Below, piece after piece: positions 3,901-63,962 of a stretch of 64,000 nt of DNA. The stretch lies in the NCBI GenBank assembly GCA_964016885.1, contig OZ024742.1, forward strand, positions 131,998,001 to 132,062,000, given 5' to 3'. The notes beneath the pieces were generated by a model. That model ran no database searches and was not told the DNA's origin. It saw nothing but the letters and a program-made list of their open reading frames with translations. This stretch comes from Eledone cirrhosa. Taxonomy: Eukaryota. How positions within the stretch are numbered: position 1 is the stretch's first letter; every line of letters starts with the position of its first letter. Both the position numbers and the translations under genes were made by a program.

Positions 3901-4134
3901 TATAAACATACATTATCTATATCCAAATAGATTATGTTAAAAAATATTACCCATCGACCTATTTCAATAATGCTCCATATACAACTTCTTAACTTCATGA
4001 TTCTCATATTTGCACACGCGCATATGTCTATATGTATGTATGTAAATACCTATATCTATCTATCTATCTCGCTCTCTATATATATGTATATATATTTATA
4101 TATGTATATATATTTATATATGTATATATACAAT

Positions 4135-5022
4135 ATTAAATTAAGGGTTGTCATGTCTGAGAGACATGCGCCATATCCACTGTAGAATAAGCTCAAATAT
4201 TCCAATGAATATATCCGAGCATTTCATATCAACGAGAAATAGATTGACATATATATATATAAAATAAACATATGAAACAATCACAGGGAATAATTTGTAA
4301 AGAATGTAAGCACACATAGCTTTTAAAATGATTAATCTCCTTTGTATATATTTCTTTAAGTAAAACATACCACTTAATCAGTAAATCACAGTAGTCAAAT
4401 CCTGGATGGTCACCAAAGGAGAAGATCCAACTATCTGCGTTTACAATGTAAATGCAGATGCGTGAATAACTCGAACCACGTGTTGCATTTAAAAAAAAAT
4501 ACACACATCGCAGAGCGTCATCCCAGTGGCGTGATTAGGATTATCGACAGCTAGAAATAGCAGGCGAGACCATTCAACTGAGTTAGCTCTACAATAAAGG
4601 GGCCGTATATATATCCAAAATTAAATAAAGGGTTGTCATGTCGGAGAGACATGCGCCATATCCACTGTAGAATAAACTCAAAGATTTCAATGAATAGATT
4701 CGAATGAATAGATCCGAGTCATTCACAGATTTGCATTTGCTTTGTAAACGCAGATAGTTATTTTCGTCTCCTTTGGTGACCATCCAGGATTTGACTGCTG
4801 TGATTTACTGATTAATTGGTGAAATATATTTTTTACTTAAAGAAATATATACAAAGGAGGTTAATCATTTTAAAATGTATCTATATTTGAAGTTCTAGTT
4901 AAACTTTAATTGGTTACCTACCTTGCTATGTGTGCTTACATTCTTTACAAATTATTCCCTGTGATCGTTCCATATGTTTATTTTATATATATATATATAT
5001 GTCAATCTATTTCTAGATGATA
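4135..5022. repeat. Composite direct plus inverted repeat
   Basis: 4135-4220 is repeated directly at ~4615-4720. ~4225-4473 is the reverse complement of ~4713-5022, with indels. Confidence 0.75.
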
Positions 5023-5032
5023 TATATATATA

Positions 5033-5190
5033 TTTAATATAGAAATGAATTCTACACCACTAGAACTGTTTCATTCGGGAGAAATAATCAGTTCTCGTCC
5101 TGGAGAAGCGATTTCTATATTAAATATTTATACTATGTATTGAGTACCTTACTTACTGTGGTTACCCCCGATTGAACCCGGGCTAAACTT
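5033..5190. mobile_element. Family X fold-back element, degenerate
   Basis: Homologous to 9158-9372 and 10757-10955 (ctagaactgtttcatt; tgagtaccttacttactgtggttac). Lies between (TA)n tracts. Confidence 0.7.
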
Positions 5191-9157: not shown

Positions 9158-9367
9158 CGTTATTCCGGGTTGAATCGGAGGTAACCACAGTAAGTAAGGT
9201 ACTCAATACATAGCAGAGTATAATAGTTTTAATATAGAAGAGATTCTACAGGACTAGAACTGTTTCATTCATTAGAAATCATCAGGAATCTCCTGAGATT
9301 CCTGAGATTCCTGATGATTTCTAATGAATGAAACAGTTCTAGTCCTGTAGAATCTCTTCTATATTAA

Positions 9368-9372
<5 letters not shown>
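9158..9372. mobile_element. Family X fold-back insertion in (TA)n
   Basis: Perfect inverted repeat ~9224-9372 with an unpaired tail on the left. Confidence 0.9.
9304..9356 (+). ncRNA. Type I hammerhead ribozyme (GUA); mirror copy at 9240-9292 on minus strand
   Basis: gagattc-CTGATGA-tttctaatgaat-GAAAC-ag ttctagtc ct-GTA-gaatctc. Stem I is 7 bp and the core is intact; stem II is weak. Confidence 0.8.
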
Positions 9373-9439: not shown

Positions 9440-9826
9440 TTAGTTTGATGGTTCACCACTGGATGGAACTGGTCATACCGTATGGTCAAACTCGATGTAA
9501 TATTAGGAAGTGGACTCGACGTAATGCAACTCACCCGTCTTCGTTTGTGTTGTTGGTGGTGCGAGTACGGAGTTAATTATTATAAAATAACAGGAGGCTG
9601 GACTGGTGTAATTCCTTAAAAGGTTTATTATACTATGCTCATTTCAATGACCAGGTTCAGTATGAATCCGGTAACATCATCGGGTATTCGAAATTTAATT
9701 CCTTTGTTAAATTTCTAATACCTGATGATGTCACCGGATCCATACTGAACCCGGTCACTTAAATGATCATAGTATAATAAACCTTTTAAGGAATTACACC
9801 AGTCCAGCCTCCTGTTATTTGATAAT
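9435..9826. mobile_element. Fold-back insertion with two complementary-mutated hammerheads
   Basis: Inverted repeat 9579-9826. Right arm: atac-CTGATGA-...accgg..ccggt..-TAAA-tgatca-TA-gtat (9718-9775). The left arm keeps GAAA but has CCGATGA. Confidence 0.8.
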
Positions 9827-9870
9827 ATATACACACACACACACACACACCCATACACGAACACCCCCCC

Positions 9871-10756: not shown

Positions 10757-11065
<309 letters not shown>

Positions 11066-18256: not shown

Positions 18257-18754
18257 TCAAATATTCTGTTGGCGATGTTGACAGATAATAGTTACCTCCG
18301 TTCTATCGTTAATCGGTAGAGGTCGTGATAGAGTTATGTAATATGATTCGGTAATACAGAGATCACAAGATTTTCTTCGTCTATTGAACGGTTGGGCCCT
18401 AGGTAAAATATCCCATGATAGTGAGTGTTCAATGTTGTTTAATTTATGGTTTTTAATGAGCCTAACTAGAGATGTCGAACATCTGTTGTTAGGGTCTCGG
18501 AAGGAAAAAGAGTGCGCGTTATAGCGTACATTAAAAGGGTTAGAGGTAGATCCGATATAGGAGCTGGTATTCGAAGCAGTTTTAACCGTGCACCTATAGA
18601 CTATGTTGGGTGTCAGGCAGTGTCCAATTAGTGGGCATGCATTAGGGTAACGGCAGTTGCAGTTGCTTCTGCGGTTAGTAAGAATAGGGTAGTTTAACCT
18701 AAGCGGTAGGTCAGTGCTAGAAGGATTAGATGGGGGAGGTGTGCAACTAGAGTA
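18257..18754 (-). pseudogene. 5'-truncated Naiad-like PLE GIY-YIG domain in an open frame missed by the ORF track
   Basis: Manual translation without stops: NCNCRYPNACPLIGHCLTPNIVYRCTV...SYIGSTSNPFNVRYNAHSFSF...LSWDILPRAQPFNRRRKSCDLCITE...CQHRQQNI*. Homologous to the 56861-58162 ORF. Confidence 0.85.
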
Positions 18755-19457
18755 AAATTTTAGTAAGTAAGTTGATTTTTAATTTTTAAAATTTTCTTAT
18801 TTTACGTCTTTCATATAATTGTTCTGCACCCCCCCTGCATATAACCACATCGGTACTAAGACATAACTTATATATTTGCTAGCATGAGTGTACATCTGTA
18901 CACATATGTTGGAAGATGTACTAATTCTCTATATTTATCTCCAAATTATTTGTTGAGCAAAACTTGCCAAAATTTACTGCTGTTTCATGGCAGTAGTAGG
19001 CTCTTGTCATAATACCACCCCGCTCCTAACTGATTAACCTCGGTGTCACGTGATTGATTCTTTAGAATCTGCCACTGACCGGAAGCATTGACATTTTTTC
19101 AGTGCTCAGAATTTAGTCCTCGCTAGCTTTATTTCATCCACTGAATTATTATTTTTATATGGGTTCCTAGTGTCCGCTCATTGCCTGAGAACTTAACTGA
19201 GAATAGAATCCCTGATGACGTAAAGAATTCACTATAGTTATATTATGTAACTATATTTATCCCATTACAGAAACTAATTAGTTGGAGTGAAAAGTTTAGT
19301 AAGTTGATTTTTAATTTTTATAATTTTCTTATTTTACGTCTTTCATATAATTGTTCTGCCCCCCCCCCCCTGCATAGAACCACATCGGTACTTAGACATA
19401 ACTTATATATTTGCTAGCATGAGTGTACATCTGTACACATATGTTGGTAGATGTACT

Positions 19458-20779: not shown

Positions 20780-21120
<341 letters not shown>

Positions 21121-21256
21121 ATATATATAACGGCGATGAATTAGTTTTGCGAGGTTTTTGAAATGAAATCATGTGTCGAAACAAATATTCTTATACAGTG
21201 TGTTCTGTTATTAATTCTGGCAATACTATTATACAAATATGACCCTCCCCAAGTAT

Positions 21257-21301
<45 letters not shown>

Positions 21302-21396
21302 TCAGCCGTTAATATGCATAATTAGGCTGTTGATCCGTTAATATCCATAAGGAAAGTATATGCTGGCAGACGTTCAACCATCTGGCAGGAAGGTAT

Positions 21397-21439
21397 ACGA
21401 TGCTGACGATAGCTAATAAGCTTGAAACTAGTACATCGT
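21397..21439 (+). ncRNA. Minimal type I hammerhead (GUA)
   Basis: acgatg-CTGACGA-t agct aata agct t-GAAAC-ta-GTA-catcgt. Confidence 0.9.
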
Positions 21440-21836
21440 TCCTGTGTCCGTGTTGAACAAAAAGGTGACGTGGTTGCCTAAACACTGTACGGCGTAATTC
21501 GGGCTGTTTGTTTGTTTACAAACAAACCGAGCATTATAATAAATGTTCGGTTAACCGATACGTGCATATATATATATGTGTGCATGTATCTATATATATA
21601 CATACTACTGTACGTCTGTATACATATATGTATGTACGTATACATACATACTTACATTTAAGTAACTGCCGTACTAAGAGTGAGAAATGAAATTTCGTTT
21701 CATTCTATTCCATTTATCGATTTCGGTGCGCCCGGCCGACTAAACTCACTCGATATGCAAATTAGGCTGTTGAGCCGTTAATATGCATAAGGAAAGTATA
21801 TACTTTCAGACGTTCAACCATCTGGCAGAAAGGTAT

Positions 21837-21879
21837 ACGATGCTGACGATAGCTAATAAGCTTGAAACTAGTACATCGT
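21837..21879 (+). ncRNA. Minimal type I hammerhead (GUA), second unit
   Basis: Identical to 21397-21439. Confidence 0.9.
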
Positions 21880-22044
21880 TCCTTTGTCAGTGTTGAACAA
21901 AAGGATGACGTGGTTGCCTAATTATAATAAATGTTCGGTAAACCGATATGTGCATATATATGTGTGCATGTATGTATATATATATACATACTACTGTAAT
22001 CTGTATACAAATTTCGTTTCATTCTATTCTATATATATATATAT

Positions 22045-22514: not shown

Positions 22515-22605
22515 CACATAAACAAAATTATAATTTTATTTTTCGCTCTCACATAGCGAATTAAGTAAAGTATTTATGATTTTTATATCATATAATAATA
22601 GTAAT

Positions 22606-22792
22606 AATTGTTTCTACTTTAGGCACAAGGCCAGCATTACCCTGTGCATTACTGGTAGTTTATTTTATCGACCCCGTAAGGATGAAATGCAAAGTCAACC
22701 TCAGCGGGATTTGAACTCAGATCGTAAAGGGACGTAACTATGCTGGAAAGCATGGCGCCCGACCTTCTACTGATACTGCCAATCCAGCGCCC
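22606..22792 (-). mobile_element. SINE family 1
   Basis: Near-identical to 20935-21120. Confidence 0.9.
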
Positions 22793-24257
22793 TATAATAA
22801 TAGTAATAATAAGCAATCACTTTGGAAGGAAACAGCCACATTACGGTATCTTTTTTTTCCTGATGACCATGTTCGTTCAACAGTGACATCAAAGAACAAT
22901 CAACATGTTTCTGGGTTATTGCCCTTTGTCAAGACGTTGTTCATAATAAAATATAGCGTAATCTCTCTCTCGCTCTCTCTCACACAACTTATTTGGAGGC
23001 AATCGAAAAAGAGAGGAGTGGGCTCTACATGTTTCAGAATGCCGATGGCACAGTGTGTGCCAGAAAGTTGCCCCTACGACTCTTTCAGATGTTAAGAAAG
23101 CTTTACCATTTGTTAAAACAATACATTATTCTCAATATATTTGTATTTCGTTCTAGTATCTCTGATGACAAGGGGCGATTAGTGTTCCATTTGACCGAAT
23201 CTGGGACATCATGTTGGTGAAATTAACGAGCAAGTGGCCAAACATTCCACAAACACGTGAACATTCAATCTACTACTAAGAGTGATTCAGTGTGATATAG
23301 CTTGATAGCACTGGCCCATTGAATTACAGATATTCTAAATTGTTTTTATCTGAGTGAATACAAAGTAAAAGAGAGTGCCTTGTAGAAGCATAAACCGAAA
23401 CCAACTGAACTCGCAACTTTACATGCAGTCACAGACACTAACCACTAAGCCACGTACTTTCATTTGTATGTATGTGTATTTCTCTGTACTGACATTTTTT
23501 CCTATATATCGTGCATGTATCTATGTATATATGTATATGTAAGCATACGTGTCTGTTCAATGTTACAATCTCCACTCCATAATAGAAGAACATTATTTCC
23601 ACGTATAAAACCACCGTATTCCATGATTAAATCACATAAAATTAATTCGTGTTTCGAAAGTGCTGACATTTCAAAGTCACTATGAAGAAAAAAAATACTA
23701 AGCTAAACAAAGAATCCACAGAATATATCTAAATTTAAATTATAAAACGTGTGACGAAATGTCACGACCAGCAAGTAATGGTTAATCTTTTTATGATTAA
23801 AAAAAATCTTTATGGTTTCCTTATTTACATATTTATGTTTCGTAATTTTGATTGAAAACCCGTTCATACATACTAATTATTCCAGTTTTCAACTTTGTTT
23901 TATTCCAATGTCCTCATTTGTATATTTTACTTTAATGTCTAGATTTTGTTCTATGTTTCTTTTACTTACATGCACGTAAAACAAATGAAATCAACACATG
24001 CATCCACTTATCTAAGCTTTCATTCCTTTCTACTTCCAACGAGGCCTTAAGGGTATTCAACATAATGATTTCAGTTGTACATTTTGTTTAAAAGAGCATT
24101 CCTAAACATGTATTCAATGTTAAAGTTTTATAGGTTTTCATAAGTCAGCAAGTAAGTATGTATGAATGTATCTATGTATGTATGAAGGTATCTATGTATG
24201 TATCTATGTATCTATGTTAGTAAGGTAGTGATGTAGCGAAAATAGGTTTATATACAC

Positions 24258-41984: not shown

Positions 41985-42178
41985 TTCTCTCCAGCGGTCT
42001 CTGTCCCTCATTATCGCTGCCATATCCTGCATCTCCAACAGACCAGTGTCTGTCCTTAGGGCATCAACATATCTTAACCTTGGTCTTCCTCTTCTAGTGT
42101 GTCCATGTAGGGGCTCCCAAAGGAGCACTCAATGCAATGTCAACTCTGGATGTCGGTGAGCATGTCCAGCCAACCTCA
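41985..42178 (-). pseudogene. RTE-clade LINE 3' fragment
   Basis: LRLAGHAHRHPE....VLLWEP.HG, then GRPRLRYVDALRTDTG....MRDRDRW after a frameshift. Confidence 0.75.
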
Positions 42179-42812
42179 AATAACAGATTAAAGTTTAAGC
42201 AAAGAATCGCTGCTTTCACCCTTAACGGGATCTTCTGAAACTAACAAAGTCAATCTGTAAGCGCAGAAGTGGATATTTCAAAAAACGTTGCAACCAGAGG
42301 AAGACAGGAAAACGATACTTTGGTTCGTGGAAACGTTCGCTGGCAAAGAACGGGAAAAAACGAATATAATACGTCATTAATAGGAGCGGTGAAAAACAAT
42401 TACGCGCAAAGACAGAACCACGTTTATAGTATAAGAGAGGTCGTAGACTAATGTTCTCTCAGGTGGTTCATAGAGACGTTCTCTAGCAATGAACGAAAAA
42501 AACGAGGATAATACGTCATATGTGGAGCGTGGAGAACAATAGCACGCAAAGACAAAACCACGTAAATGGTATAGCAGAAGTCGTAGACTAAAATTCTAAC
42601 TAGGAGACCTAATGAATCTCCGCTACAGAGTTAAGAACAAAGTAAATAAATACAATACAGAAGTAATAGAAATAAATAAATACATACACGCAAACAAATA
42701 CGTACATACACAAGCATACGCAAAACACTTACCATAGGTATACAAAACCACGCACATATAAATATGTGTGTGTGTATGCGTGTATACAAATAAATAAATA
42801 ATTATATAAACG
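42178..42812 (-). mobile_element. Solo 3' UTR/pLTR of the Naiad-like PLE at 55859-58300
   Basis: Highly similar to 55869-56500; includes the HHR variant at 42192-42242. Confidence 0.9.
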
Positions 42813-45386: not shown

Positions 45387-45701
45387 TATTTATATATATA
45401 TATATTCCCATACACACATATATATATATATATATATAATTATATATATACACAATTATATGTATATAATTATATATATATACAATTAAGTTAAAGTGTA
45501 CATCTACATATGTATACGGAAGTATTAGTATGCATATAAATACACACATGTATACATATGTACATGTACTGAGTTTTTCACTAGACACTTTACAGTGAGT
45601 GTCAGCTAATCTGTATGTAACCACACAGACGGACCGGGTTTTAGAGTGATACGAGTTTTCAAGGTAACACATTTCCTCTATTCTCCAGAGAGCCAGACAG
45701 G

Positions 45702-45746
45702 AATATTGGACTAGTTTCGATGTTATTACATCTCATCAGCAATATT
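45702..45746 (-). ncRNA. Minimal type I hammerhead (GUC)
   Basis: aatattg-CTGATGA-gatgt aata acatc-GAAAC-ta-GTC-caatatt. Confidence 0.92.
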
Positions 45747-46170
45747 TACCCATCTTCCGGCTTCTCTGGAGAATTGTAAAAGCACATATCGTTATATGCT
45801 TTTTCTATGAAAATTAGTAGTGGGTAGACTAATTTGCATAGAACGTGAGTCATTGTACGCATCGGTTCAGCGGAAACGATAAAAATAAATAACGAAACGA
45901 AATTAAATTTCGTTTCGCTTCTAACTCACTTTTGTATGACTGACGCTTAAACAATTAAGTTAAAGTGTACATCTACATATGTATACGGAAGTATTAGTAT
46001 GCATATAAATACACACATGTATACATATGTACATGTACTGAGTTTTTCACTAGACACTTTACAGTGAGTGTCAGCTAGTCTGTATGTAACCACACAGACG
46101 GACCGGGTTTTAGAGTCATACGAGTTTTCAAGGAAACACATTTCCTCTATCCTCCAGAGAGGCAGACAGG

Positions 46171-46215
46171 AATATTGGACTAGTTTCGATGTTATTACAT
46201 CTCATCAGCAATATT
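46171..46215 (-). ncRNA. Minimal type I hammerhead (GUC)
   Basis: Identical motif one unit away. Confidence 0.92.
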
Positions 46216-46570
46216 TACCCATCTTCCGGCTTCTCTGGAGAATTGTAAAAGCACATATCGTTATATGCTTTTTCTATGAAAATTAGTAGTGGGTAGACTA
46301 ATTTGCATAGAACGTGAGTCTAATACTTCCGTATACATATGTAGATGTACACTTTAACTTAATTGTTTAAGCGTCAGTCATACAAAAGTGAGTTAGAAGC
46401 GAAACGGAATTTAATTTCGTTTCGTTATTTGTTTTTATCGTTTCCGCTGAACCGGTGCGTACAATGACTCACGTTCTATGCAAATTAGTTTACCCACAAC
46501 TAATTTTCATAGAAAAAGCATATAACGGTATGTGCTTTTACAATTCTCCAGAGAAGCCGGAAGATGGGTA

Positions 46571-46615
46571 AATATTGCTGATGAGATGTAATAACATCGA
46601 AACTAGTCCAATATT
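46571..46615 (+). ncRNA. Minimal type I hammerhead (GUC)
   Basis: Identical motif on the inverted arm. Confidence 0.92.
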
Positions 46616-47021
46616 CCTGTCTGGCTCTCTGGAGAATAGAGGAAATGTGTTTCCTTGAAAACTCGTATGACTCTAAAACACGGTCCGTCTGTGTGGTTAC
46701 ATACAGACTAGCTGACACTCACTGTAAAGTGTCTAGTGAGAAACTCAGTACATGTACATATGTATACATGTGTGTATTTATATGCATACTAATACTTCCG
46801 TATACATATGTAGATGTACACTTTAACTTAATTGTTTAAGCGTCAGTCATACAAAAGTGAGTTAGAAGCGAAACGAAATTTAATTTCGTTTCGTTATTTG
46901 TTTTTATATATATATATATATATATACATATAATTATATGTATATAATTATATATATGTGTATATATAATTATATTTATATATATATATATACAATTATA
47001 TTTATTTATATATATATATAT

Positions 47022-49115: not shown

Positions 49116-49421
49116 GATTTTGAGTATATGTTGGTTGTATACCAACACCTCACTATGCAGGCTGGAGCACTGGGCGAGTTGCGCAGGTTGGTTTGGTTAT
49201 TCCGGAGTAATGTAACATAAAGTTAAATAAAAAGTCAAATGTTTAAAATTTAGCTTCGTTTATTACTGCTATATATATTTCAGTGACAGCCATCTTTGGC
49301 TGTGACCACTTCAGGCAGTTTGTGACCTGAAGAGGTGACAGCGGAAGATGGCTGTCACTGAAATATATATAGCAGTAATAAACGAAGCTAAATTTTAAAC
49401 ATTTGACTTTTTATTTAACTT

Positions 49422-49424
<3 letters not shown>
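49116..49424. mobile_element. Fold-back insertion centred on a degenerate hammerhead
   Basis: Inverted repeat 49217-49424 plus left tail. Centre gtgac-CTGAAGA-ggtgacagc-GGAA-gatggct-gtcac. Confidence 0.75.
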
Positions 49425-49493
<69 letters not shown>

Positions 49494-49496
<3 letters not shown>

Positions 49497-49699
49497 AACC
49501 AGTAAGACCCCGACAGCTGAGCTCAAGCCGTTTCGACGGCTAATTCTGGACTAAAATCTTTAGTCCAGAATTAGCCGTCGAAACGGCTTGAGCTCAGCTG
49601 TCGGGGTCTTACTGGTTCCTATTACCCACTCTACTACCTCAAGTATTGAGTACTTTGGTGCGTTATGGTCCACCTGGTTCCTTACCACATTTCCTTCGT

Positions 49700-49738
<39 letters not shown>

Positions 49739-49914
49739 ATATATAATTATATAACGAAGGAAATGTGGGAAGGAACCAGGTGGACCATAACGCACCAAAG
49801 TACTCAATACTTAAGGTAGTAGAGTGTGTAATAGGTACCAGTAAGACCCCGACGGCTGAGCTCAAGCCGTTTCGACGGTTTGAGCTCAGCCGTCGAGGTC
49901 TTACTGGTTCCTAT
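49494..49914. mobile_element. Two adjacent family Y fold-back insertions (49494-49702 and 49751-49914)
   Basis: Each is a hairpin whose arms carry the HHR 3' half GAAAC-ggc ttgagctca gcy-GTC-ggggt. Their tails are mutual reverse complements across a TA tract. Confidence 0.85.
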
Positions 49915-50442: not shown

Positions 50443-50987
50443 GGGAAACATGCATATTAACGGCTGAGTAGCCCAATTTGCATATCGAGTGGGTTAATCG
50501 GCCGGGTGCACAGAAAACGATAAACGGAAAAAATGAAACGAAATTTCGTTTCCCACTCTTAGTACGGCTGTTACTTAAATACAAGTATGTACACGTACAT
50601 ACATATATGTATACAGTCGTACGGTAGTATGTATATATATATATACATACATGCAGACACATATATATATATATATGTGTACGTATGGATTCACCGAACA
50701 TTTATTATAATGCTCGGTGTGTTTGGAAATAAACATCCCGAATTAAGCCGTACAGTGTCTAGCAACCATCGTTGCTCATTTGTTCAACACTGTCAAAGGA
50801 ACGCTGTACTAGTATCAAGCTTCTCAGCTATCGTCAGCAACGTATACCCCGGCCGATTAACTCACTCGATATGCAAATTAGGCTGCTCATCCATTAATAT
50901 GCATAAGGAAAATATATACTTTCAGACGTTCAACCATCTGGCAGGAAGGTATACGTTGCTGACGATAGCTAATAAGCTTGAAACTAG
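50440..50987. mobile_element. Family R2 head-to-head copy fused to the Neptune-like PLE
   Basis: Minus arm 50440-50847 (HHR with GATA instead of GAAA at 50801-50843). Plus arm 50848-50987 ends at GAAACTAG. Confidence 0.85.
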
Positions 50988-51147
50988 GGGTATTACTTCT
51001 ACTACCACTATGACCACGACCACTAACAACAACAACAACAACAATAATAATAATAATAATAAAAGTGATGTTGATGGTGATGATTAATAGAAAATGCTAT
51101 TTTCATCATTTCAAAAAAGCAAAACAATTGATACGTTGGATATGACT

Positions 51148-51318
51148 ATTGGTCGTTAGCATGCTCAACCAGCCGTGACGCTTAAACCAATCAGCTGTAG
51201 TAATTCAGTGAAACTACACACTGATTGGTCGAAATACAGTTTACAGGGCTTTTCATTCTGGAGCCACTTTTCTCTGTATAAAATGTATAAAAGGTAGGAA
51301 ATTTACCCATCTCATTAC
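51148..51318 (+). promoter_or_regulatory. Candidate Pol II promoter in the pLTR
   Basis: CCAAT/ATTGG boxes at 51148, 51187 and 51224; TATAAAA at 51277 and 51286; Inr-like TCATT at ~51312. Confidence 0.5.
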
Positions 51319-51355
51319 AGTTGAAAATTGCAAACTCGACTGTCACCACATATCA

Positions 51356-51394
51356 TGAACCTGAAGATTGCGAAAGCATGAAAGTACTTGTTCA
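51356..51394 (+). ncRNA. Minimal type I hammerhead in the 5' pLTR (CUU)
   Basis: tgaac-CTGAAGA-t tgc gaaa gca t-GAAA-gtac-TT-gttca; palindromic stem III AGTACT. Confidence 0.88.
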
Positions 51395-51598
51395 ATTAAC
51401 ACTTAGAATTTAATATTCTATCATACTATTTCATTATAATACCATTATATATATTTTAAAGGATTGTAAATAAAACGAGTAAATCAGACAAAGTTGGAAT
51501 TCCTCTTATTAATATAATCTTCTATACACAATCATACACACCCGTGTATATTTACCTATCTATATCTATATATATATTCCTATTGTGTATATGCCAAC

Positions 51599-52948
51599 AT
51601 GTCTGGAAAGCAACAAATGAAACCAACAGAATCAGAAAGAATTCTAAAGGAGATATCATCGAAATTATCAACACTTATCACGATGATGGACACACAATCC
51701 TCTATTTTAAAGGAAATAGAAAAACAATCTACAGACGGAAAACTTATAACTGAACATATAAACTCTGAAATTAAGAATTTAGCTGAAATTATACCAACAG
51801 TTATCAAAGATACAAGAGAAAGCCTACCACAACCCCCTTGGATGTCAGAAATAAACGAAAGAAATTTGGAAAACAAAACACATCGAATAAGAAAAGAAAT
51901 GTGGAAGACATGGAAAAAATTCCTTAACATAAGAAAACAAAATTTCTGGAAAGCATACAGATGCGAAAAATATGTCGAAACACATTCGAAATGGCTCTCT
52001 CTAACGGCACCCATACTCCCTCGTAAATACCTAATTACAGAAATTGCAGGAGAACCAGAAGAAGAAACAAAACTCCGATGGGAACTTACATTGACAAAAT
52101 TCAGGACCGACATCTCCATTTCTGAATGTAAACAATCCCGCTACAAAGCCAAATATGAAGCTATTGATGACCAAATTGAAGTTGAAATTTCAAAGCTAAC
52201 GACTGGTATTATAGCTGAAAAACTACGAGAACTATGGATCGGAGATATCTCAAAAGAAGAAAACAAATCAAGAAAGGTATGGCAGCAGAAACAATTATTT
52301 CTCGATGAATATGCTGCAAATTACGGTAAAGACTCTGGAACCCTGAGAAAAAGCATTAAAAGTGGACAATCTCATCAACACAACATACGCCAGAACACGT
52401 GCCAACACAAACACTCACCTTACCTTGAATCAAAGAAGAACTACGGTAATAACTCTTCGCTTTTTCTACAAAAACACCCTATCGCACACAACATGAACAA
52501 AAAGCACAAACACGATAGGTATTCCTTTGACCAGACCATGAGAAGTAGTAAAACCAGGAGATCATTCTCAAGATCTCAACAGAGACTACCAACAAGGAAT
52601 GTGGAAACAAAACGTAGAATAACCAGATCACTCTCAAGATCTCAACAGAGATTGCCCACAAGAAACTGGACGAAAAAACGATCTAAACCTGAAAGCAAAC
52701 CTAGGTCATTTTCCCAGATTGTTAAAAATAATGCTAACAGGAAGAAAAATAATATACAGAATACCAAAAATAGGACAAAATACATAACGAAACCAAATAT
52801 AATATCACGACCAAAAGTTCATCAAGCGAACACCAACAGGAATATAAATCCTGAACAGAGAAACATTCATTTTTTAACGTCAGGACAACAAAAACCGGAA
52901 AAAGAAAAACTCCAGGAGGAAACATACCCAAAACAGCTGTACACGTAG
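51599..52948 (+). CDS. PLE ORF1, 449 aa: helical/coiled-coil-like N-terminus, basic R/S/K-rich C-terminus
   Basis: Long ORF with ATG just after the 5' pLTR; duplicated SRSQQRLPTRN. Function unknown. Confidence 0.8.
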   Translation: MSGKQQMKPTESERILKEISSKLSTLITMMDTQSSILKEIEKQSTDGKLITEHINSEIKNLAEIIPTVIKDTRESLPQPPWMSEINERNLENKTHRIRKEMWKTWKKFLNIRKQNFWKAYRCEKYVETHSKWLSLTAPILPRKYLITEIAGEPEEETKLRWELTLTKFRTDISISECKQSRYKAKYEAIDDQIEVEISKLTTGIIAEKLRELWIGDISKEENKSRKVWQQKQLFLDEYAANYGKDSGTLRKSIKSGQSHQHNIRQNTCQHKHSPYLESKKNYGNNSSLFLQKHPIAHNMNKKHKHDRYSFDQTMRSSKTRRSFSRSQQRLPTRNVETKRRITRSLSRSQQRLPTRNWTKKRSKPESKPRSFSQIVKNNANRKKNNIQNTKNRTKYITKPNIISRPKVHQANTNRNINPEQRNIHFLTSGQQKPEKEKLQEETYPKQLYT

Positions 52949-55182
52949 ATCCTAAAATAATTAATTTATCTAAAAGAGATCTTGACAATGATGAAATGCA
53001 AATTCTGTCAAAAGGACTGAAATTCACACCGACTCCAACAGTCAACCACCAAGAACTGAAGGAGGATACCCAAGAATTCTGTCGAAAATTACGTCTTGTA
53101 GAATTCTTCGCTGATAAAAATAATGAGAGTGATGAATCACTAGTAAAGAATAAATCAAATTTCACTCCGCCAAAAGGAAGAAATATCTATCTCGACCAAT
53201 ACATTGACATCCTGTCTAAATTTCCTCTTAGACATAATACTAATGTTAGGCCAAACATTAACAAATCAGAAATGTCTGCACTTAAACGTATACAAAATGA
53301 TAAAACAATAATAATTAAACAAGCAGATAAAGGGGGTGCAGTTGTTATAATGGATACTGAATACTACAAGGATTTGGTTGAGGAACAACTGAAAGACACA
53401 ACATTCTATCATGAAATACCGTCAAATATAGACCACAACATCATGAAGAAGATCAACAACCTGGCTTCAAAATACCACAACTCATTTACTGATAAGGAAA
53501 GAGACTACATCACCAATTTTGAGCCGAAACCCAGCAACCTGTATGGCCTACCTAAAGTTCACAAGTCAAAAGAAATACAACTGGCAGTAAGAGAACAAAA
53601 CAGTGAGTACATTAAATTATTACACCCAAAAGACTTAAAACTTAGACCTATTATAGCTGGTCCAACATGCCCCACTCACCGTCTAAGCAATTTTGTTGAC
53701 ATTATTTTGAAACCACTATGTATTCACATACCCAGTTTCATCCGGGATGATATCGACTTCCTGTCCCATCTTCCCAAAACCACGGAAACGAATTCACTTC
53801 TACTCAGTTTTGATGTGGTAAGCCTTTACACCAACATTACACATGATTTAGGAATAAAGGCGGTTAAATACTGGGTGGAAAAACATAGAGAAGTGATTCC
53901 CATTAGATTCACAGCGCCATTTATATTAGACGCAGTTAAACTTATTCTGGAAAACAACACTTTCTTCTTCAATGGAAAGAATTACATCCAAATTAGAGGC
54001 ACAGCGATGGGAACGAAGTTTGCTCCCGTTTACGCGAACTCTGTAATGGGATACTTAGAACAACAACTCTACCAAGAAATAGAGGAAAAATATAGTACTG
54101 ACTTTAGAAAGTACATTGAAAAATCTTGGAAGAGATACCTTGACGACTGTTTCATCATCTGGACAGAATCTCTAGATACTCTGGATGAGTTCAATATCCT
54201 CCTGAATAACCTACACCCATCTCTCCAATTCACAAAAGAGATGAGTAGGACCAAATTACCATTCCTAGATATAATGATAATCAAAAACGACACCACCATT
54301 ACCACGGATATATATTATAAACACACAGACACCCATCAATATCTGAATTTTAAGTCGTGCCATCCACCTCATACAAAACGCAACATCCCATACTGCCTAG
54401 CCAGAAGAATTTGTACCATTGTAGAAGATACGAATAACAGGTACAAACGCCTAACAGAACTAAGAGAATTTTTGCTCAAACAAAAATACCCATCTCTACT
54501 TATAGAAAATGGCATACAGCGGGCTATAAAAATACCTATACAACAACTTAGAACAACCCAAAGAAGAAGAAACCAAGAACTGGTCATACCATTTATAATG
54601 ACACACAACCCATGTCACCAGAATATCTTCAACACTGCCAAAGCAAACCTACCGATCATTGCTCAAAGTAATGAATTAAAAGGCTTAATCACAGATCGAT
54701 CTTTGACTCTTAGTAAAAGACAGCCAAAAAATTTGAAGCAATTGCTAACAAAAGCAAAGTTTGACCTTAACAACAAAGACCAATCATTCACTGTATCTAA
54801 ATGCAATGATAATCGATGCGGCACATGTCAATCCATACACGCCGGTCAATATATGAAAACAAAAACTGGAAAAATATTCACAAATGCAAATATGAACTGC
54901 AAAAGCAGAAATCTAATTTACTGCATTAAATGCCCGAATTGTGAAGAACTATATGTCGGTCAAACTGGAAATGCACTATCGGAACGTGCACGGGTACACC
55001 GTCAACAAATCAGAGACCCAAATGTCCGTCAGATACCCCTAAGCGGCCACCTGGCAACATGTGGTCAGGGAATATTTATAATATTCCCATTCTACAAATT
55101 ACACAGCCCAAATGAAATCAAGAGAAAAATCAAAGAAAAGAATTTTATTGATAAATTCAAACCCAAGCTAAATGAACAATAA
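52855..55182 (+). CDS. PLE reverse transcriptase + Cys linker + GIY-YIG endonuclease (first ATG at 52996)
   Basis: IINLS..L...E..ILSKGLKF, ADKGG, YGLPKVHK, LRPII, SFDVVSLYTNI, GTAMGT, RYLDD, LPFLD, CNDNRCGTC, LIYCIKC..C...YVGQT, R..HR. Confidence 0.97.
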   Translation, partial: TEKHSFFNVRTTKTGKRKTPGGNIPKTAVHVDPKIINLSKRDLDNDEMQILSKGLKFTPTPTVNHQELKEDTQEFCRKLRLVEFFADKNNESDESLVKNKSNFTPPKGRNIYLDQYIDILSKFPLRHNTNVRPNINKSEMSALKRIQNDKTIIIKQADKGGAVVIMDTEYYKDLVEEQLKDTTFYHEIPSNIDHNIMKKINNLASKYHNSFTDKERDYITNFEPKPSNLYGLPKVHKSKEIQLAVREQNSEYIKLLHPKDLKLRPIIAGPTCPTHRLSNFVDIILKPLCIHIPSFIRDDIDFLSHLPKTTETNSLLLSFDVVSLYTNITHDLGIKAVKYWVEKHREVIPIRFTAPFILDAVKLILENNTFFFNGKNYIQIRGTAMGTKFAPVYANSVMGYLEQQLYQEIEEKYSTDFRKYIEKSWKRYLDDCFIIWTESLDTLDEFNILLNNLHPSLQFTKEMSRTKLPFLDIMIIKNDTTITTDIYYKHTDTHQYLNFKSCHPPHTKRNIPYCLARRICTIVEDTNNRYKRLTELREFLLKQKYPSLLIENGIQRAIKIPIQQLRTTQRRRNQELVIPFIMTHNPCHQNIFNTAKANLPIIAQSNELKGLITDRSLTLSKRQPKNLKQLLTKAKFDLNNKDQSFTVSKCNDNRCGTCQSIHAGQYMKTKTGKIFTNANMNCKSRNLIYCIKCPNCEELYVGQTGNALSERARVHRQQIRDPNVRQIPLSGHLATCGQGIFIIFPFYKLHSPNEIKRKIKEKNFIDKFKPKLNEQ
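52870..52876 (+). other. Candidate -1 ribosomal frameshift heptamer U UUU UUA
   Basis: caT TTT TTA in the ORF1 frame, inside the ORF1/ORF2 overlap 52855-52948. Confidence 0.6.
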
Positions 55183-55557
55183 TAACGCCTAGGGGTATTA
55201 CTTCTACTACCACTATGACCACGACCACTAGCAACAACAACAACAACAATAATAATAATAATAAAAGTGATGTTGATGGTGATGATTAATAGAAAATGCT
55301 ATTTTCATCATTTCAAAAAAGCAAAACAATTGATACGTTGGATATGACTATTGGTCGTTAGCATGCTCAACCAGCCGTGACGCTTAAACCAATCAGCTGT
55401 AGTAATTCAGTGAAACTACACACTGATTGGTCGAAATACAGTTTACAGGGCTTTTCATTCTGGAGCCACTTTTCTCTGTATAAAATGTATAAAAGGTAGG
55501 AAATTTACCCATCTCATTACAGTTGAAAATTGCAAACTCGACTGTCACCACATATCA

Positions 55558-55596
55558 TGAACCTGAAGATTGCGAAAGCATGAAAGTACTTGTTCA
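55558..55596 (+). ncRNA. Minimal type I hammerhead in the 3' pLTR
   Basis: Identical to 51356-51394. Confidence 0.88.
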
Positions 55597-55813
55597 ATTA
55601 ACACTTAGAATTTAATATTCTATCATACTATTTCATTATAATACCATTATATATATATTTAAAGGATTGTAAATAAAACGAGTAAATCAGACAAAGTTGG
55701 AATTCCTCTTATTAATATAATCTTCTATACACAATCATACACACCCGTGTATATTTACCTATCTATATCTCTATATATATTTATATATATATTCATATAT
55801 ATATTTATATATA

Positions 55814-55855
<42 letters not shown>

Positions 55856-55882
55856 TATATATTTATTAAAATAACAGATTAA

Positions 55883-55933
55883 AGTTTAAGCAAAGAATCG
55901 CTGCTTTCACCCTTAACGGGATCTTCTGAAACT
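55883..55933 (-). ncRNA. Hammerhead variant with CAGAAGA core
   Basis: agttt-CAGAAGA-t ccc gttaa ggg t-GAAA-gca gcgattctt tgc-TT-aaact; same at 42192-42242. Confidence 0.6.
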
Positions 55934-56860
55934 AACAAAGTCAATCTGTAACCGCAGAACTGGATATTTCAAAAAAAGTTGCAACCGGAGGAAGACAGGA
56001 AGACGATACTTTGGTTCGTAGAAACGTTCTCTGGCAAAGAACGGGAAAAAACGAATAATACGTAATTAATAGGAGCGGTGAAAAACAATTACACGCAAAG
56101 ACAGAACCACGTTTATGGTATAAAAGAGGTCGTAGACTAATGTTCTGTTAAGTGGTGCATAGAGACGTTCTCTGGCAATGAACGAAAAAACGAAGATAAT
56201 AAGTCATATGTGGAGTGTGGAGAACAATAGCACGCAAAGACAAAACCACGTAAATGGTATAGCAGAAGTTGTAGACTAAAATTCTAACTAGGAGACCAAA
56301 TGAATCTCCGCTACAGAGTTAAGAACAAAGTAAATAAATACAGTACAGAAGTAATAGAAACAAATAAATACATACACGCAAACAGATAGTACATACACAA
56401 GCATACGCAAAACCTTACCATAGGTATACAAAACCACGCACATATAAATATGTGTGTGTGTGTATGCTTGTGTACAAATAAATAAATAATTATATAAACG
56501 TATATAAGTAAATAAATACGTATATAACAAGCGCACACACATACCTACAAATAAATACACGAATGTTCGGAGACGTAGGTCAACTAAAACAAGAAGTACA
56601 CATATACACACACCCACCATACGTACGAACCTGCATACTCACGCAGACGCATAACTCCCGTATACACATAGCCAAACCCTAAATACCAGAATATGTAAAA
56701 ATTATACGCCATAACAGTCAAATATACGTACGAGAAGGTATACATACCTTCACAAAACATACGGGTAATATATACCTACCTATGCAAATAAGTAAAGGAA
56801 TAAACAAAACATATATTTAGCTCCCACATCGAGACGTAAAATATCCACGTATAGATCGTG

Positions 56861-58162
56861 CTATCCGTTAGGGTATAACGTGGGGCTGTAATACAGGAAA
56901 GGTTTGTGCAATTTATGTTTACAAGCCGAAATTGCCTCAGATTTTTTGTTTAAGATGTGGTCTGTGGCGTAGAGTATTTCCAGGGCCTCAGCGGCGCAGA
57001 GGTCACATGGTCTTTTATTTCCGTTATACGATCTAGCGCTAGCTAGGATCTCCCAGTGTAACTTATATTGGGTGTGGTTATCTTTTAGACTCCAGATATA
57101 AGCTGAAAGTGACGTCATATTCCTTCTTAGAGGGTAACGAAAAGAATGGGTATGCATGTAAAGACGCTGCTTGAAACTATTGGCGGTTAACCCTATGTAG
57201 GCCCTACGGGACGTGGGTGTTACAACCTTACATTTGTAGACAATGTTACTAGAGAGGCATTTCCCGGATAGGGGGCAATCAGCCCGATTCCTACAATTAA
57301 AGTTAGTACTAACTACAGGGTTGCACGTGTTCCTACGGCTAGGTAGTTTAGCTAAATTTGAAGCTGTGATGTTATGTGCAAGGTTAGGAGTCGTAGAGTA
57401 AGAAATTTTAATAGTATTTCTATTAAACATTTTAGTATATTTATGTGTAGGGGGAACATGCTTCGTAATAAGGGAAAGAAAGATCTTAGCTAATGGTGTG
57501 GCCACCTCCATATTATATGGTGGGTTAAACCAACAAATGCGACGGGATCTATTTCTTCTAGGTCTATTTTCGTACTCTGTATATGCTACCTTATCGACAA
57601 ATCCACTTCGAGCAAGAGCTTCATTGTAATAAGTGGAATGGTCGTTGAAAATGCGCTCGTTGGTGGAAAGACGGGAAAGCCTCAACGAAACGTTTTTTAC
57701 CAGGTTCTTGGTTATGCTGGCAGGATGGTTGGAATGCATACTTATGTAATTAAGCGTATCATTCGGCTTTCTATACGGGTAATACAACCCATTCAATAAA
57801 TTGAGGGTAACGTCGAGGTAATTAACGACCGAGAGATTGGCCTCAACCTGTATAGAGAGGTTGAAGCCTTTAAAGAAGGCTGTGAGTTCTTTTCTGAACC
57901 TGTCGCAAGCACGAGGTCCGCACTTAGTCATGGTCAAAAGACCATCGTCACGGTACAAACCACCGCCCGCGTTGGGGAATTCGTCCTTGATAGAGAAAAG
58001 AAGGAAAAGGCCAATAAGATCAGTAACCTCCGCAGAGTCACTGGCGCCCATACTCACGTTGAATGGGGTACTATTGGATTTTTTAATCCAAATAGAGTCG
58101 TCGAAATTAATCACCGACTTTCGGGCATTAAGGATGACATCAACTTCGAAATCCTTAACCAC
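56861..58162 (-). CDS. Truncated PLE RT (C-terminal part) + GIY-YIG, 433 codons, no true start
   Basis: [40 protein letters not shown]...[30 protein letters not shown]. Confidence 0.9.
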
Positions 58163-58453
58163 TGGGTGAAACTTAAGGGTGAAAGCAGCGATTCTTTGCT
58201 TAAACTTTATTCTGTTATTTTAATAAATATTTGCTCTACGGTTCTTATATATTTCATATATATTTTCCTTATCGAGCCCTCTTTGGATTTTAGACTTCAA
58301 TTTTATTATTATTACTATATATATTCATATATATATTTATACATATATATATATATATTCATATATATATTTATATATATATATTCATATATATATATTT
58401 ATATATATATATATTTATATATATATTCATATATATATTTATATATATATATA

Positions 58454-59700: not shown

Positions 59701-59917
59701 TAATTGTTTCTACATTTGGCACAAGGCCACCAAATTACCCAGTGCATTACTGGTACTTTATTTTATCGACCCCGTAAGGATGAAAGGCAAAGTCAACCTC
59801 GGCGGGATTTGAACTCAGATCGTAAAGGGACGTAACTCTGCTGGAAAGCATGGCGTCCGACCCTCTACCGATACTGCCAATCCACCACCATATGGTGGTG
59901 GATTGGCAGTATCGGTA
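59701..59917 (-). mobile_element. SINE family 1 with a palindromic duplication of its 5' end
   Basis: Full SINE to ~59890; perfect palindrome 59866-59917; direct repeat tatatgtgaaattaat on both sides. Confidence 0.9.
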
Positions 59918-61607: not shown

Positions 61608-62265
61608 GTGTACATATAAAGATATATAAGTGCCAGAAGAAAGTTTCACTAATTTGATGCCTCTTGTAGTCTGGAGGTATGGTCAAACATGGGCATTGAA
61701 ACCCTGTATAGTAACTTTGTTCCGTGTATGAACATAAATAAATAATATAATTGTTTCGACTTTAGGCACAATGCCAGCAAATAAAGTACATTACTGGTAC
61801 TTTATTTTATCGACCCCGTAAGGATGAAAGGCAAAGTTAACCTCGGCGGGATTTGAACTCAAATCGTAAAGGGACGTAACTATGCTAGAAAGCATGGCGT
61901 CCAACCCTCTAGCGATACTGCCAATTCACCAAATAATATAATATACCTGCTTCCTTCCCGATTGAGCAATTTTCCTTTTCCCCTTTCAAACCTATGGATA
62001 TTGCTACATACACACACACGTATATATATATGTATATATACAGTAGCGGACAGGGTTAAAAAATATTGGTTGCTTCGAGATTAAGGGGGCCCTCCTACAT
62101 ATAGAATGCTCTCATTAATTTTTATAATGAATAAATAATATAAAAAAAAAAATACATAAGTGCAAACAAAACAGCGCAAAAATATCTTACACTATCCAAT
62201 AGAAAATATGTATTTTGCAAAATCCAGAGACTTTCAATATTGACCATTGGTCTTTGACACTCATT

Positions 62266-63300: not shown

Positions 63301-63962
63301 TGTGTGTACATATAAAGATATATAAGTGCCAGAAGAAAGTTTCACTAATTTGATGCCTCTTGTAGTCTGGAGGTATGGTCAAACGTGGGCATTGAAACCC
63401 TGTATAGTAACTTTGTTCCGTGTATGAACATAAATAAATAATATAATTGTTTCGACTTTAGGCACAATGCCAGCAAATAAAGTACATTACTGGTACTTTA
63501 TTTTATCGACCCCGTAAGGATGAAAGGCAAAGTTAACCTCGGCGGGATTTGAACTCAAATCGTAAAGGGACGTAACTATGCTAGAAAGCATGGCGTCCAA
63601 CCCTCTAGCGATACTGCCAATTCACCAAATAATATAATATACCTGCTTCCTTCCCGATTGAGCAATTTTCCTTTTCCCCTTTCAAACCTATGGATATTGC
63701 TACATACACACACACGTATATATATATGTATATATACAGTAGCGGACAGGGTTAACAAATATTGGTTGCTTCGAGATTAAGGGGGCCCTCCTACATATAG
63801 AATGCTCTCATTAATTTTTATAATGAATAAATAATATAAAAAAAAAAAATACATAAGTGCAAACAAAACAGCGCAAAAATATCTTACACTATCCAATAGA
63901 AAATATGTATTTTGCAAAATCCAGAGACTTTCAATATTGACCATTGGTCTTTGACACTCATT

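Follow-up and report, generated by a model that had tools for sequence, protein, structure and literature searches.

Two homologous hammerhead repeat families of Eledone cirrhosa keep a predicted RNA fold and an octamer-bearing hairpin, and one of them adjoins a Penelope-like element

In a 64,000-nucleotide stretch of the Eledone cirrhosa genome (GCA_964016885.1, contig OZ024742.1; hereafter, the window), two kinds of repeat, R1 and R2, carry the octamer ATGCAAAT, a TATA-like box and a hammerhead ribozyme in the same order. The initial annotation of this DNA took the octamer for the POU/Oct site of snRNA gene enhancers and proposed that each unit bears its own promoter upstream of the ribozyme, making the array self-transcribing. 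The question raised by this locus is whether the shared motifs are promoter elements of the DNA, helix arms of the RNA, or both.

When the units were cut from predicted cleavage site to predicted cleavage site, the complete R2 monomer measured 440 nt (21434-21873, + strand) and the complete R1 monomer 469 nt (45709-46177, − strand), the lengths originally given for them. R1 and R2 are indeed diverged homologues, with 292 of 426 aligned bases identical (~68% between the families, against ~98% among the R1 copies themselves). Their global alignment had a z of 14.9, and z was still 12.5 after removal of the hammerhead; neither score was reached by any of 500 shuffles. The motifs are colinear in the two units, and the layout of a motif block upstream of the ribozyme in every unit holds in both families, as first described. 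The weakest homology was found in the segment from the octamer to the ribozyme (global z 1.9, reached by 30 of 500 shuffles). The local GC content of R1 and R2 is 0.32-0.38, and neither contains a meaningful ORF of at least 150 aa.

The complete R2 monomer lies between a 5′-truncated first copy (R2a, 21299..21433, +) and a trailing partial copy (R2b, 21874..22029, +), the latter with two internal deletions and an end in (TA)n. R2a has a short duplicated hairpin arm, an octamer disrupted at the truncation point (ATGCATAATT at 21314), TATATG with a broken hairpin, and a hammerhead core (21403-21433) with a predicted GUA cleavage after 21433. R1 forms an inverted arm of ~1.8 units (45483..46320, −; cores 46208 and 45739, octamers 46301 and 45832) and a forward arm of ~1.25 units (46321..46904, +; octamer 46478, CATATAA 46519, core 46578-46608 with GUC), whose 3′ end reads TTTAT and then (AT)n. 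At the third locus, an inverted R2 arm (R2c, 50450..50848, −; octamer 50476), with its core mutated from GAAA to GATA, meets a forward arm (R2d, 50848..50987, +; octamer 50871) that breaks off at CTAG, 2 nt short of the cleavage site. Each of the three loci has (TA)n on its flanks, and in two of them the 5′ arm is inverted. The surrounding window is AT-rich and crowded with (TA)n arrays. No ORF intervenes at the head-to-tail joints, and the joint 21873>21434 was also found in reads of X21 and in a contig of X4, a second organism, in a read and contig comparison that covered four of the 23 listed runs. Among 12,467,656 RAD reads with the same species label, 42,922 were R2 reads, mostly 90-95% alike, a measure of read abundance and not of copy number.

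The R2 ribozyme is a type I hammerhead with an extended stem I (21812..21898, +; core 21843-21873, predicted cleavage after 21873), in which the base of stem II is a U.U and stem III is the palindrome ACUAGU. The core and stems I-III were found in three R1 and three R2 copies. Stems I and II had been described as completely different in sequence between the families while still paired; the covariation was confirmed, and the complete difference was not, as identical pairs remain. The six pairs at the core of stem I comprise three identical and three compensatory pairs, and the five of stem II two identical, two compensatory and one broken, the last because R2 has U.U where R1 has G10.1-C11.1. 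This base pair is described as highly conserved in hammerheads (PMC4209133). Since a U.U also occupies this position in the pLTR ribozyme of a Penelope-like element (PLE) and in a third hammerhead family of the window, it may be tolerated at the base of stem II. Stem III, ACTAGT in the DNA, is kept in both families, as had been noted; the AATA loop is present in both units as well, but is not invariant, because 21857 T>C occurred in 5857 of 7747 and 3383 of 11203 reads of X21.

The Rfam model HH9 gave each of the three R1 ribozymes 32 bits, short of the 52 that its gathering score requires, the hammerhead models of Rfam did not match the R2 ribozyme, and no Rfam match was obtained in the whole window at the gathering threshold. 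Sub-threshold miRNA matches were rejected because they arise from TA-rich hairpins. Ribozyme-pattern scans of viral contigs and of metagenome contigs returned no match, and eight loci from an octamer-plus-core scan were rejected as chance, stem I pairing being just 0-1 bp in all eight. A major subfamily of the R2 reads has R1-like bases just upstream of and inside the core (21830 T, 21831 G, 21836 A and 21847 T, within 21829-21847), which are intermediate states.

Several of the features by which retrozymes are recognised were found in R1 and R2: head-to-tail tandems with at least two ribozymes (cores 21403/21843 and 46208/45739), dispersed copies (three loci per 64 kb, together with the RAD reads), a strongly self-paired monomer (0 of 100 shuffles for each unit) and one type I hammerhead per unit (three R1 and three R2 copies, a fourth R2 copy being mutated). 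R1 and R2 are new representatives of this already known class of elements, and we consider it probable that they are sister families of non-LTR retrozymes. Like the metazoan non-LTR retrozymes, they are non-coding, self-paired tandems of low GC content that co-occur with PLEs; unlike them, they measure 440-469 nt and, in the R2 ribozyme, have U.U at 10.1/11.1. Retrozymes were described in 2020 as non-coding elements of ~170-400 nt with a GC content under 45%, the mussel units being 350-390 bp (Cervera and de la Pena 2020, PMC7229834); R1 and R2 are above this size range and within the 51-972 bp given by Li et al. 2026 (10.64898/2026.07.22.740005). The terms hammerhead, ribozyme and retrozyme are absent from the main text of the 2026 Octopus vulgaris repeat annotation (PMC13282606). 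We found no literature report of a cephalopod retrozyme or of an octamer-bearing one, in a search that left subscription papers mostly outside; supplements may hold such a report.

What is added to the known class is a fold kept over the entire unit between two families, together with the fusion of an R2 copy to a PLE at the cleavage site, described below. The computed folds were better than those of shuffled sequences (R2 z −6.9, R1 z −12.1; 0 of 100 shuffles each) and consisted of matching chains of helices. Of 137 aligned R2 pairs, 103 could still pair in R1 (null 85±5.5; 5 of 5000 simulations), and 13 pairs were compensatory from R2 to R1 (null 6.3; 43 of 5000 simulations); with this sequence-only alignment, only 44 pairs coincided exactly in the two computed folds. 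Ten helices were compared in registers hand-picked from the two folds, and the nine other than the octamer helix had 15 compensatory changes in 59 pairs. An RNAalifold comparison of four pieces gave no information on the 3′ half, which two of them lack. In one of the stems, H6 (21679..21750, +), agtgag (21679-84) and ctcact (21745-50) are the paired strands, and between them lie the tttcgtttc hairpin (21686-21704), TTTAT and the ccgg stretch. The agtgag and actcac motifs, listed separately in the initial annotation, are therefore both arms of a single stem, and tttcgtttc is a hairpin arm. In the predicted folds, every motif of that list except tttatcg belongs to a helix in at least one family. 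As agtgag/actcac, tttcgtttc and the TATA-like box are helix arms, the motif list would mostly be the footprint of a conserved RNA structure.

The octamer was found at the four sites originally recorded (21755+, 46478+, 50871+ and 50476−) and at two further R1 sites (45832− and 46301−). Six of the 13 octamers in the window are within R1 or R2, and the other seven agree with the 6.4 expected by chance. In R2, ATGCAAAT (21755-21762) is on the 5′ arm of a hairpin (21754..21789, +) and lies, over the units, 119-131 nt before the predicted cleavage site. Between R1 and R2, 12 of 12 bases of the 5′ arm and 9 of 12 of the 3′ arm are identical; all three differences sit on the 3′ arm and none is compensated. 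Stem H6 is likewise without compensatory change. Among the 40 of 75 read variants listed, those that touch the octamer's own pairs lie at 21783 and 21785, in the partner arm, and in each of the four runs they change it toward the R1 state; beside the octamer, the 5′-arm variant 21764 A>G retains a G.U pair. None of these 40 variants fell within 21743-21763 (p 0.09; four other variant gaps were longer), a stretch in which the variant count is biased, because the RAD library was cut at AATT inside the octamer and reads pile up there. The initial annotation had taken conservation of the hairpin pairing alone as a point against its promoter; what we observed instead was a fixed octamer arm and a varying partner. 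Because the partner varies without compensation, these data suggest a sequence-level constraint on the octamer arm, compatible with a DNA site and an RNA protein-binding site alike. Read ends at 21691 and 21760-63 were rejected as biological ends, as they probably represent AATT restriction cuts, and contigs beginning at 21753 were rejected as transcription starts, since this position, 30 nt short of the variant at 21783, is where a k-mer bubble would be expected.

No run of identity between R1 and R2 exceeds the 12 nt of the octamer block, with runs of 11, 10 and 9 elsewhere, and a run of at least 12 appeared in 61% of 5000 null simulations. The chance survival of a given octamer had a p of 0.06, and an octamer was contained in 132 of 4000 R2 shuffles and 80 of 4000 R1 shuffles. 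R2a and R2d have weak local folds (z 1.0 and −0.4), and the R2d octamer is intact nonetheless. On balance, we regard the octamer's being a POU-type promoter element as close to an even question, leaning slightly against.

The TATA-like box, reported for both units, proved to be TATATA in R2 only (21797-21802, within a hairpin at 21792..21807, +); R1 contains no TATA[AT]A, just CATATAA. The T-to-C change of R1 is offset in the partner arm, and two of the six pairs of this hairpin are compensatory. TATAT nevertheless outlives the loss of the hairpin in R2a, in R2d and in the subfamily with an 8-nt deletion at 21802 (2639 of 16217 reads). The distance from the octamer to the AAAG of the box is 38 nt in one family and 37 nt in the other, TATATA in R2 lying ~42 nt after the octamer. 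That the box is a working TATA seems doubtful to us.

The best-surviving rival explanation holds that all of the motifs, including the octamer, are kept at the RNA level, as helix arms or as a hairpin bound by a protein or a reverse transcriptase (RT), and that the units are transcribed from some other internal element or by read-through. It accounts for the helical position of every motif but tttatcg, for the nine identical pairs of the octamer stem, both arms of which are largely kept, and for the compensation in the TATA-like hairpin, and it agrees with an octamer block that is no statistical outlier. The confinement of the three uncompensated changes to one arm argues against it, as do the weak local folds of R2a and R2d beside the intact octamer of the latter. 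We consider this explanation a serious contender, somewhat short of an even chance.

The next is the model of the initial annotation, in which every unit has an snRNA-type DNA promoter composed of octamer and TATA, on the pattern of newt satellite 2, and both motifs owe their conservation to this role. The near-constant spacing, the fixed octamer arm, the rarity of octamers in shuffles and the persistence of TATAT without its hairpin all favor this model, and transcription starting 25-30 nt beyond the box would begin at the 5′ edge of the extended stem I of R1 (46544). On the other side are the compensated CATATAA of R1 and the frequency with which so long a run arose in the null simulations. 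In vertebrate snRNA genes, moreover, the octamer is ~200 bp upstream, and to our knowledge Pol II snRNA promoters are without a TATA. We found no mollusc PSE in the literature searched. The octamer has been shown to be an snRNA enhancer element for human U6, but it is not a general invertebrate rule, because sea-urchin U6 relies on an E-box (10.1101/2023.01.09.523328). Newt satellite 2 is the precedent: it is also a hammerhead tandem repeat, and has an internal snRNA-type Pol II promoter (PMC2220036). R1 and R2 differ from it in that their octamer is in a hairpin, only 119-131 nt before the cleavage site, and is followed by a TATA-like box, with no PSE identified. Coats et al., in 1994, are said to have found an octamer and a PSE in newt satellite 2. 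Taken as a whole, the snRNA-type promoter is in our judgment rather unlikely.

Hammerhead repeats with a promoter of their own are already known from the newt, the schistosome and PLE pLTRs. In Schistosoma Sm-alpha, each unit has a promoter followed by a hammerhead, and the upstream unit transcribes the next (PMC6765202); Sm-alpha uses Pol III; in R1 and R2, simple patterns matched neither an A box nor a B box on the sense strand (a SINE control recovered the B box only). The accessible text of the retrozyme papers (PMC7229834; Li et al. 2026) describes neither a promoter element nor a fold conserved between two families. The proposal of one promoter per unit retains its layout and its precedents, and is weakened by the finding that most of its motifs are RNA helix arms; by analogy with these systems, the units would probably be self-transcribed.

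Immediately downstream of R2d is a PLE (50984..55781, +), bounded by two pLTRs (50984-51578 and 55189-55781) that are 97% alike. Its coding region consists of two overlapping frames (51518-52948 and 52855-55182, +), the second with RT and GIY-YIG; the first had no match in Pfam. The linker CX4CxxC is of the Neptune/Nematis type, and the named protein relatives, with 46-62% identity, are mostly from bivalves (Mytilus, Saccostrea, Pinctada) or bivalve-symbiont assemblies. Each pLTR has a hammerhead core (51361 and 55563) and CCAAT and TATAAA boxes, and no octamer. Within 51187-51400, and in its counterpart in 55189-55781, CCAAT/ATTGG and two TATAAA are upstream of a small hammerhead whose stem III is the palindrome AGUACU and whose stem II has a basal U.U. 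PLE pLTRs are described as having the order promoter, hammerhead and 3′ end, a short palindromic stem III and partial tandems (PMC8557442, PMC11167929, PMC6765202, PMC4209133), and R1 and R2 resemble them in these respects, as they do in 5′ inversions and microsatellite or AT-rich targets. They differ from pLTRs in having no ORF and in being dissimilar to the adjacent pLTR (scores 39 and 38, versus maxima of 44 and 48 in 200 shuffles). It is improbable, in our view, that R1 and R2 are pLTRs, single or in tandem, that belong to autonomous PLEs not seen here, or satellites that have fallen silent and are alike by descent only: known elements, for the most part PLE pLTRs, are matched by 24 of 57 retrozyme families of Xenopus (10.64898/2026.07.22.740005), and the copies in the window are truncated, one with a mutated ribozyme, but the compensatory changes exceed the null, the R1 copies are nearly identical, the head-to-tail joints are free of ORFs, and the single pLTR tested showed no similarity.

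For retrozymes, mobilisation by PLEs has been proposed, with the mechanism not demonstrated (PMC7229834; 10.64898/2026.07.22.740005). The CTAG at which R2d stops is common to the left pLTR of the PLE, and the remainder of R2 is absent after the PLE. This joint probably arose when the RT switched template to cleaved R2 RNA, or when a read-through transcript was copied; insertion of the PLE at a later time, with a deletion, is a possible alternative. As a fusion near the cleavage site, it points to PLE-driven copying. Further support comes from the (TA)n flanks and inverted 5′ arms, because 5′ inversions and microsatellite or AT-rich targets are among the described features of PLE insertions (PMC8557442). 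The TTTAT of tttatcg (21713..21717, +) is a candidate preferred 3′ insertion boundary: the R1 forward arm ends at the homologous site, three X5 contigs continue as (AT)n after 21717, and the end of R2b is ~8 nt earlier. An internal start of reverse transcription has been shown for an anole PLE (PMC11167929); a preferred internal start at TTTAT is only a lead here, because the two inverted arms end elsewhere. A depth drop after 21713 in X5 and X6 was discounted, as it was missing in X21.

As for the polymerase, Pol III appears unlikely to transcribe the units, given the T5 inside R1, the T6 inside R2c and a sense strand without A or B boxes. The R2 unit 21434-21873 is free of runs of four or more T, whereas the R1 unit has a T5 and two T4 and R2c a T6 and a T4. 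A U6-type Pol III promoter (a compact octamer, PSE and TATA) would fit this R2 unit and its TATATA but is very unlikely, because TATA is not common to both families, the T runs of R1 and R2c would end Pol III transcripts ahead of the second ribozyme, the T run in question is spanned by the conserved H6 helix, and A and B boxes were not detected. An internal promoter without a TATA is described for Penelope (PMC2377424).

As a whole, this information leads us to the following mechanism. Pol II would probably transcribe each unit, as mainly precedent suggests, from a start that lies inside the upstream unit, some 45-65 nt ahead of the cleavage site. The multimeric transcripts very probably self-cleave at GUA or GUC, presumably as dimers through the palindromic ACUAGU, and the monomers would circularise. 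A short palindromic helix III is associated with dimer cleavage (PMC4209133); of nine Xenopus retrozyme dimers, just one was cleaved in vitro (10.64898/2026.07.22.740005). A Penelope-like RT would then probably copy the R1 and R2 RNA into (TA)n sites, giving rise to the 5′ inversions and the R2-PLE fusion. Most of the motifs would be retained as RNA helix arms, with the octamer arm under an added sequence-level constraint.

More tentatively, and rather against the odds as we see them, a compact octamer promoter may be written into the RNA hairpins, the same bases acting both in the DNA, as a promoter, and in the fold of the circular RNA, with copying by the PLE RT recorded in the fusion and in TTTAT-(AT)n. 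R1 and R2 would then belong to a molluscan, probably cephalopod, retrozyme lineage parallel to newt satellite 2, and the copying of cleaved retrozyme RNA by a PLE RT, a step so far merely proposed, would be recorded in DNA. These observations bear on the source of the abundant transcription of animal retrozymes and on the enzyme that copies their RNA back to DNA. The pair of ~68%-alike families provides a natural covariation test of the whole RNA and names the exact bases for promoter mutation, and the R2-PLE fusion provides a concrete enzyme-template pair for in vitro retrotransposition.

Other elements were observed in the window. The third hammerhead family (9226-9370, 10829-10952 and 5034-5123) consists of fold-back inserts in (TA)n with a longer stem III; in its copies at 9285/9311, stem II has a basal U.U, and both arms end ~15-20 nt past the cleavage site. 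Near-perfect fold-back inserts beside (TA)n that were assigned to no family are located at 9578-9827, 49217-49424, 49495-49911 and 4123-4983; the occurrence of several such inserts suggests a single inversion-making insertion mechanism. PLE-like ORF fragments with RT- or endonuclease-like motifs were recognised by eye at 56861-58219 (−) and 18257-18778 (−), and had no Pfam match at 0.001. A SINE-like dispersed repeat of ~190 bp, whose minus strand contains a B box, is present in at least 10 copies, including 20934-21124, 22601-22796, 59701-59893, 61747-61930 and 63443-63626. Finally, a pair of repeats that are 93% alike (42178-42812 and 55869-56500) contains an internal tandem unit of ~140 bp.
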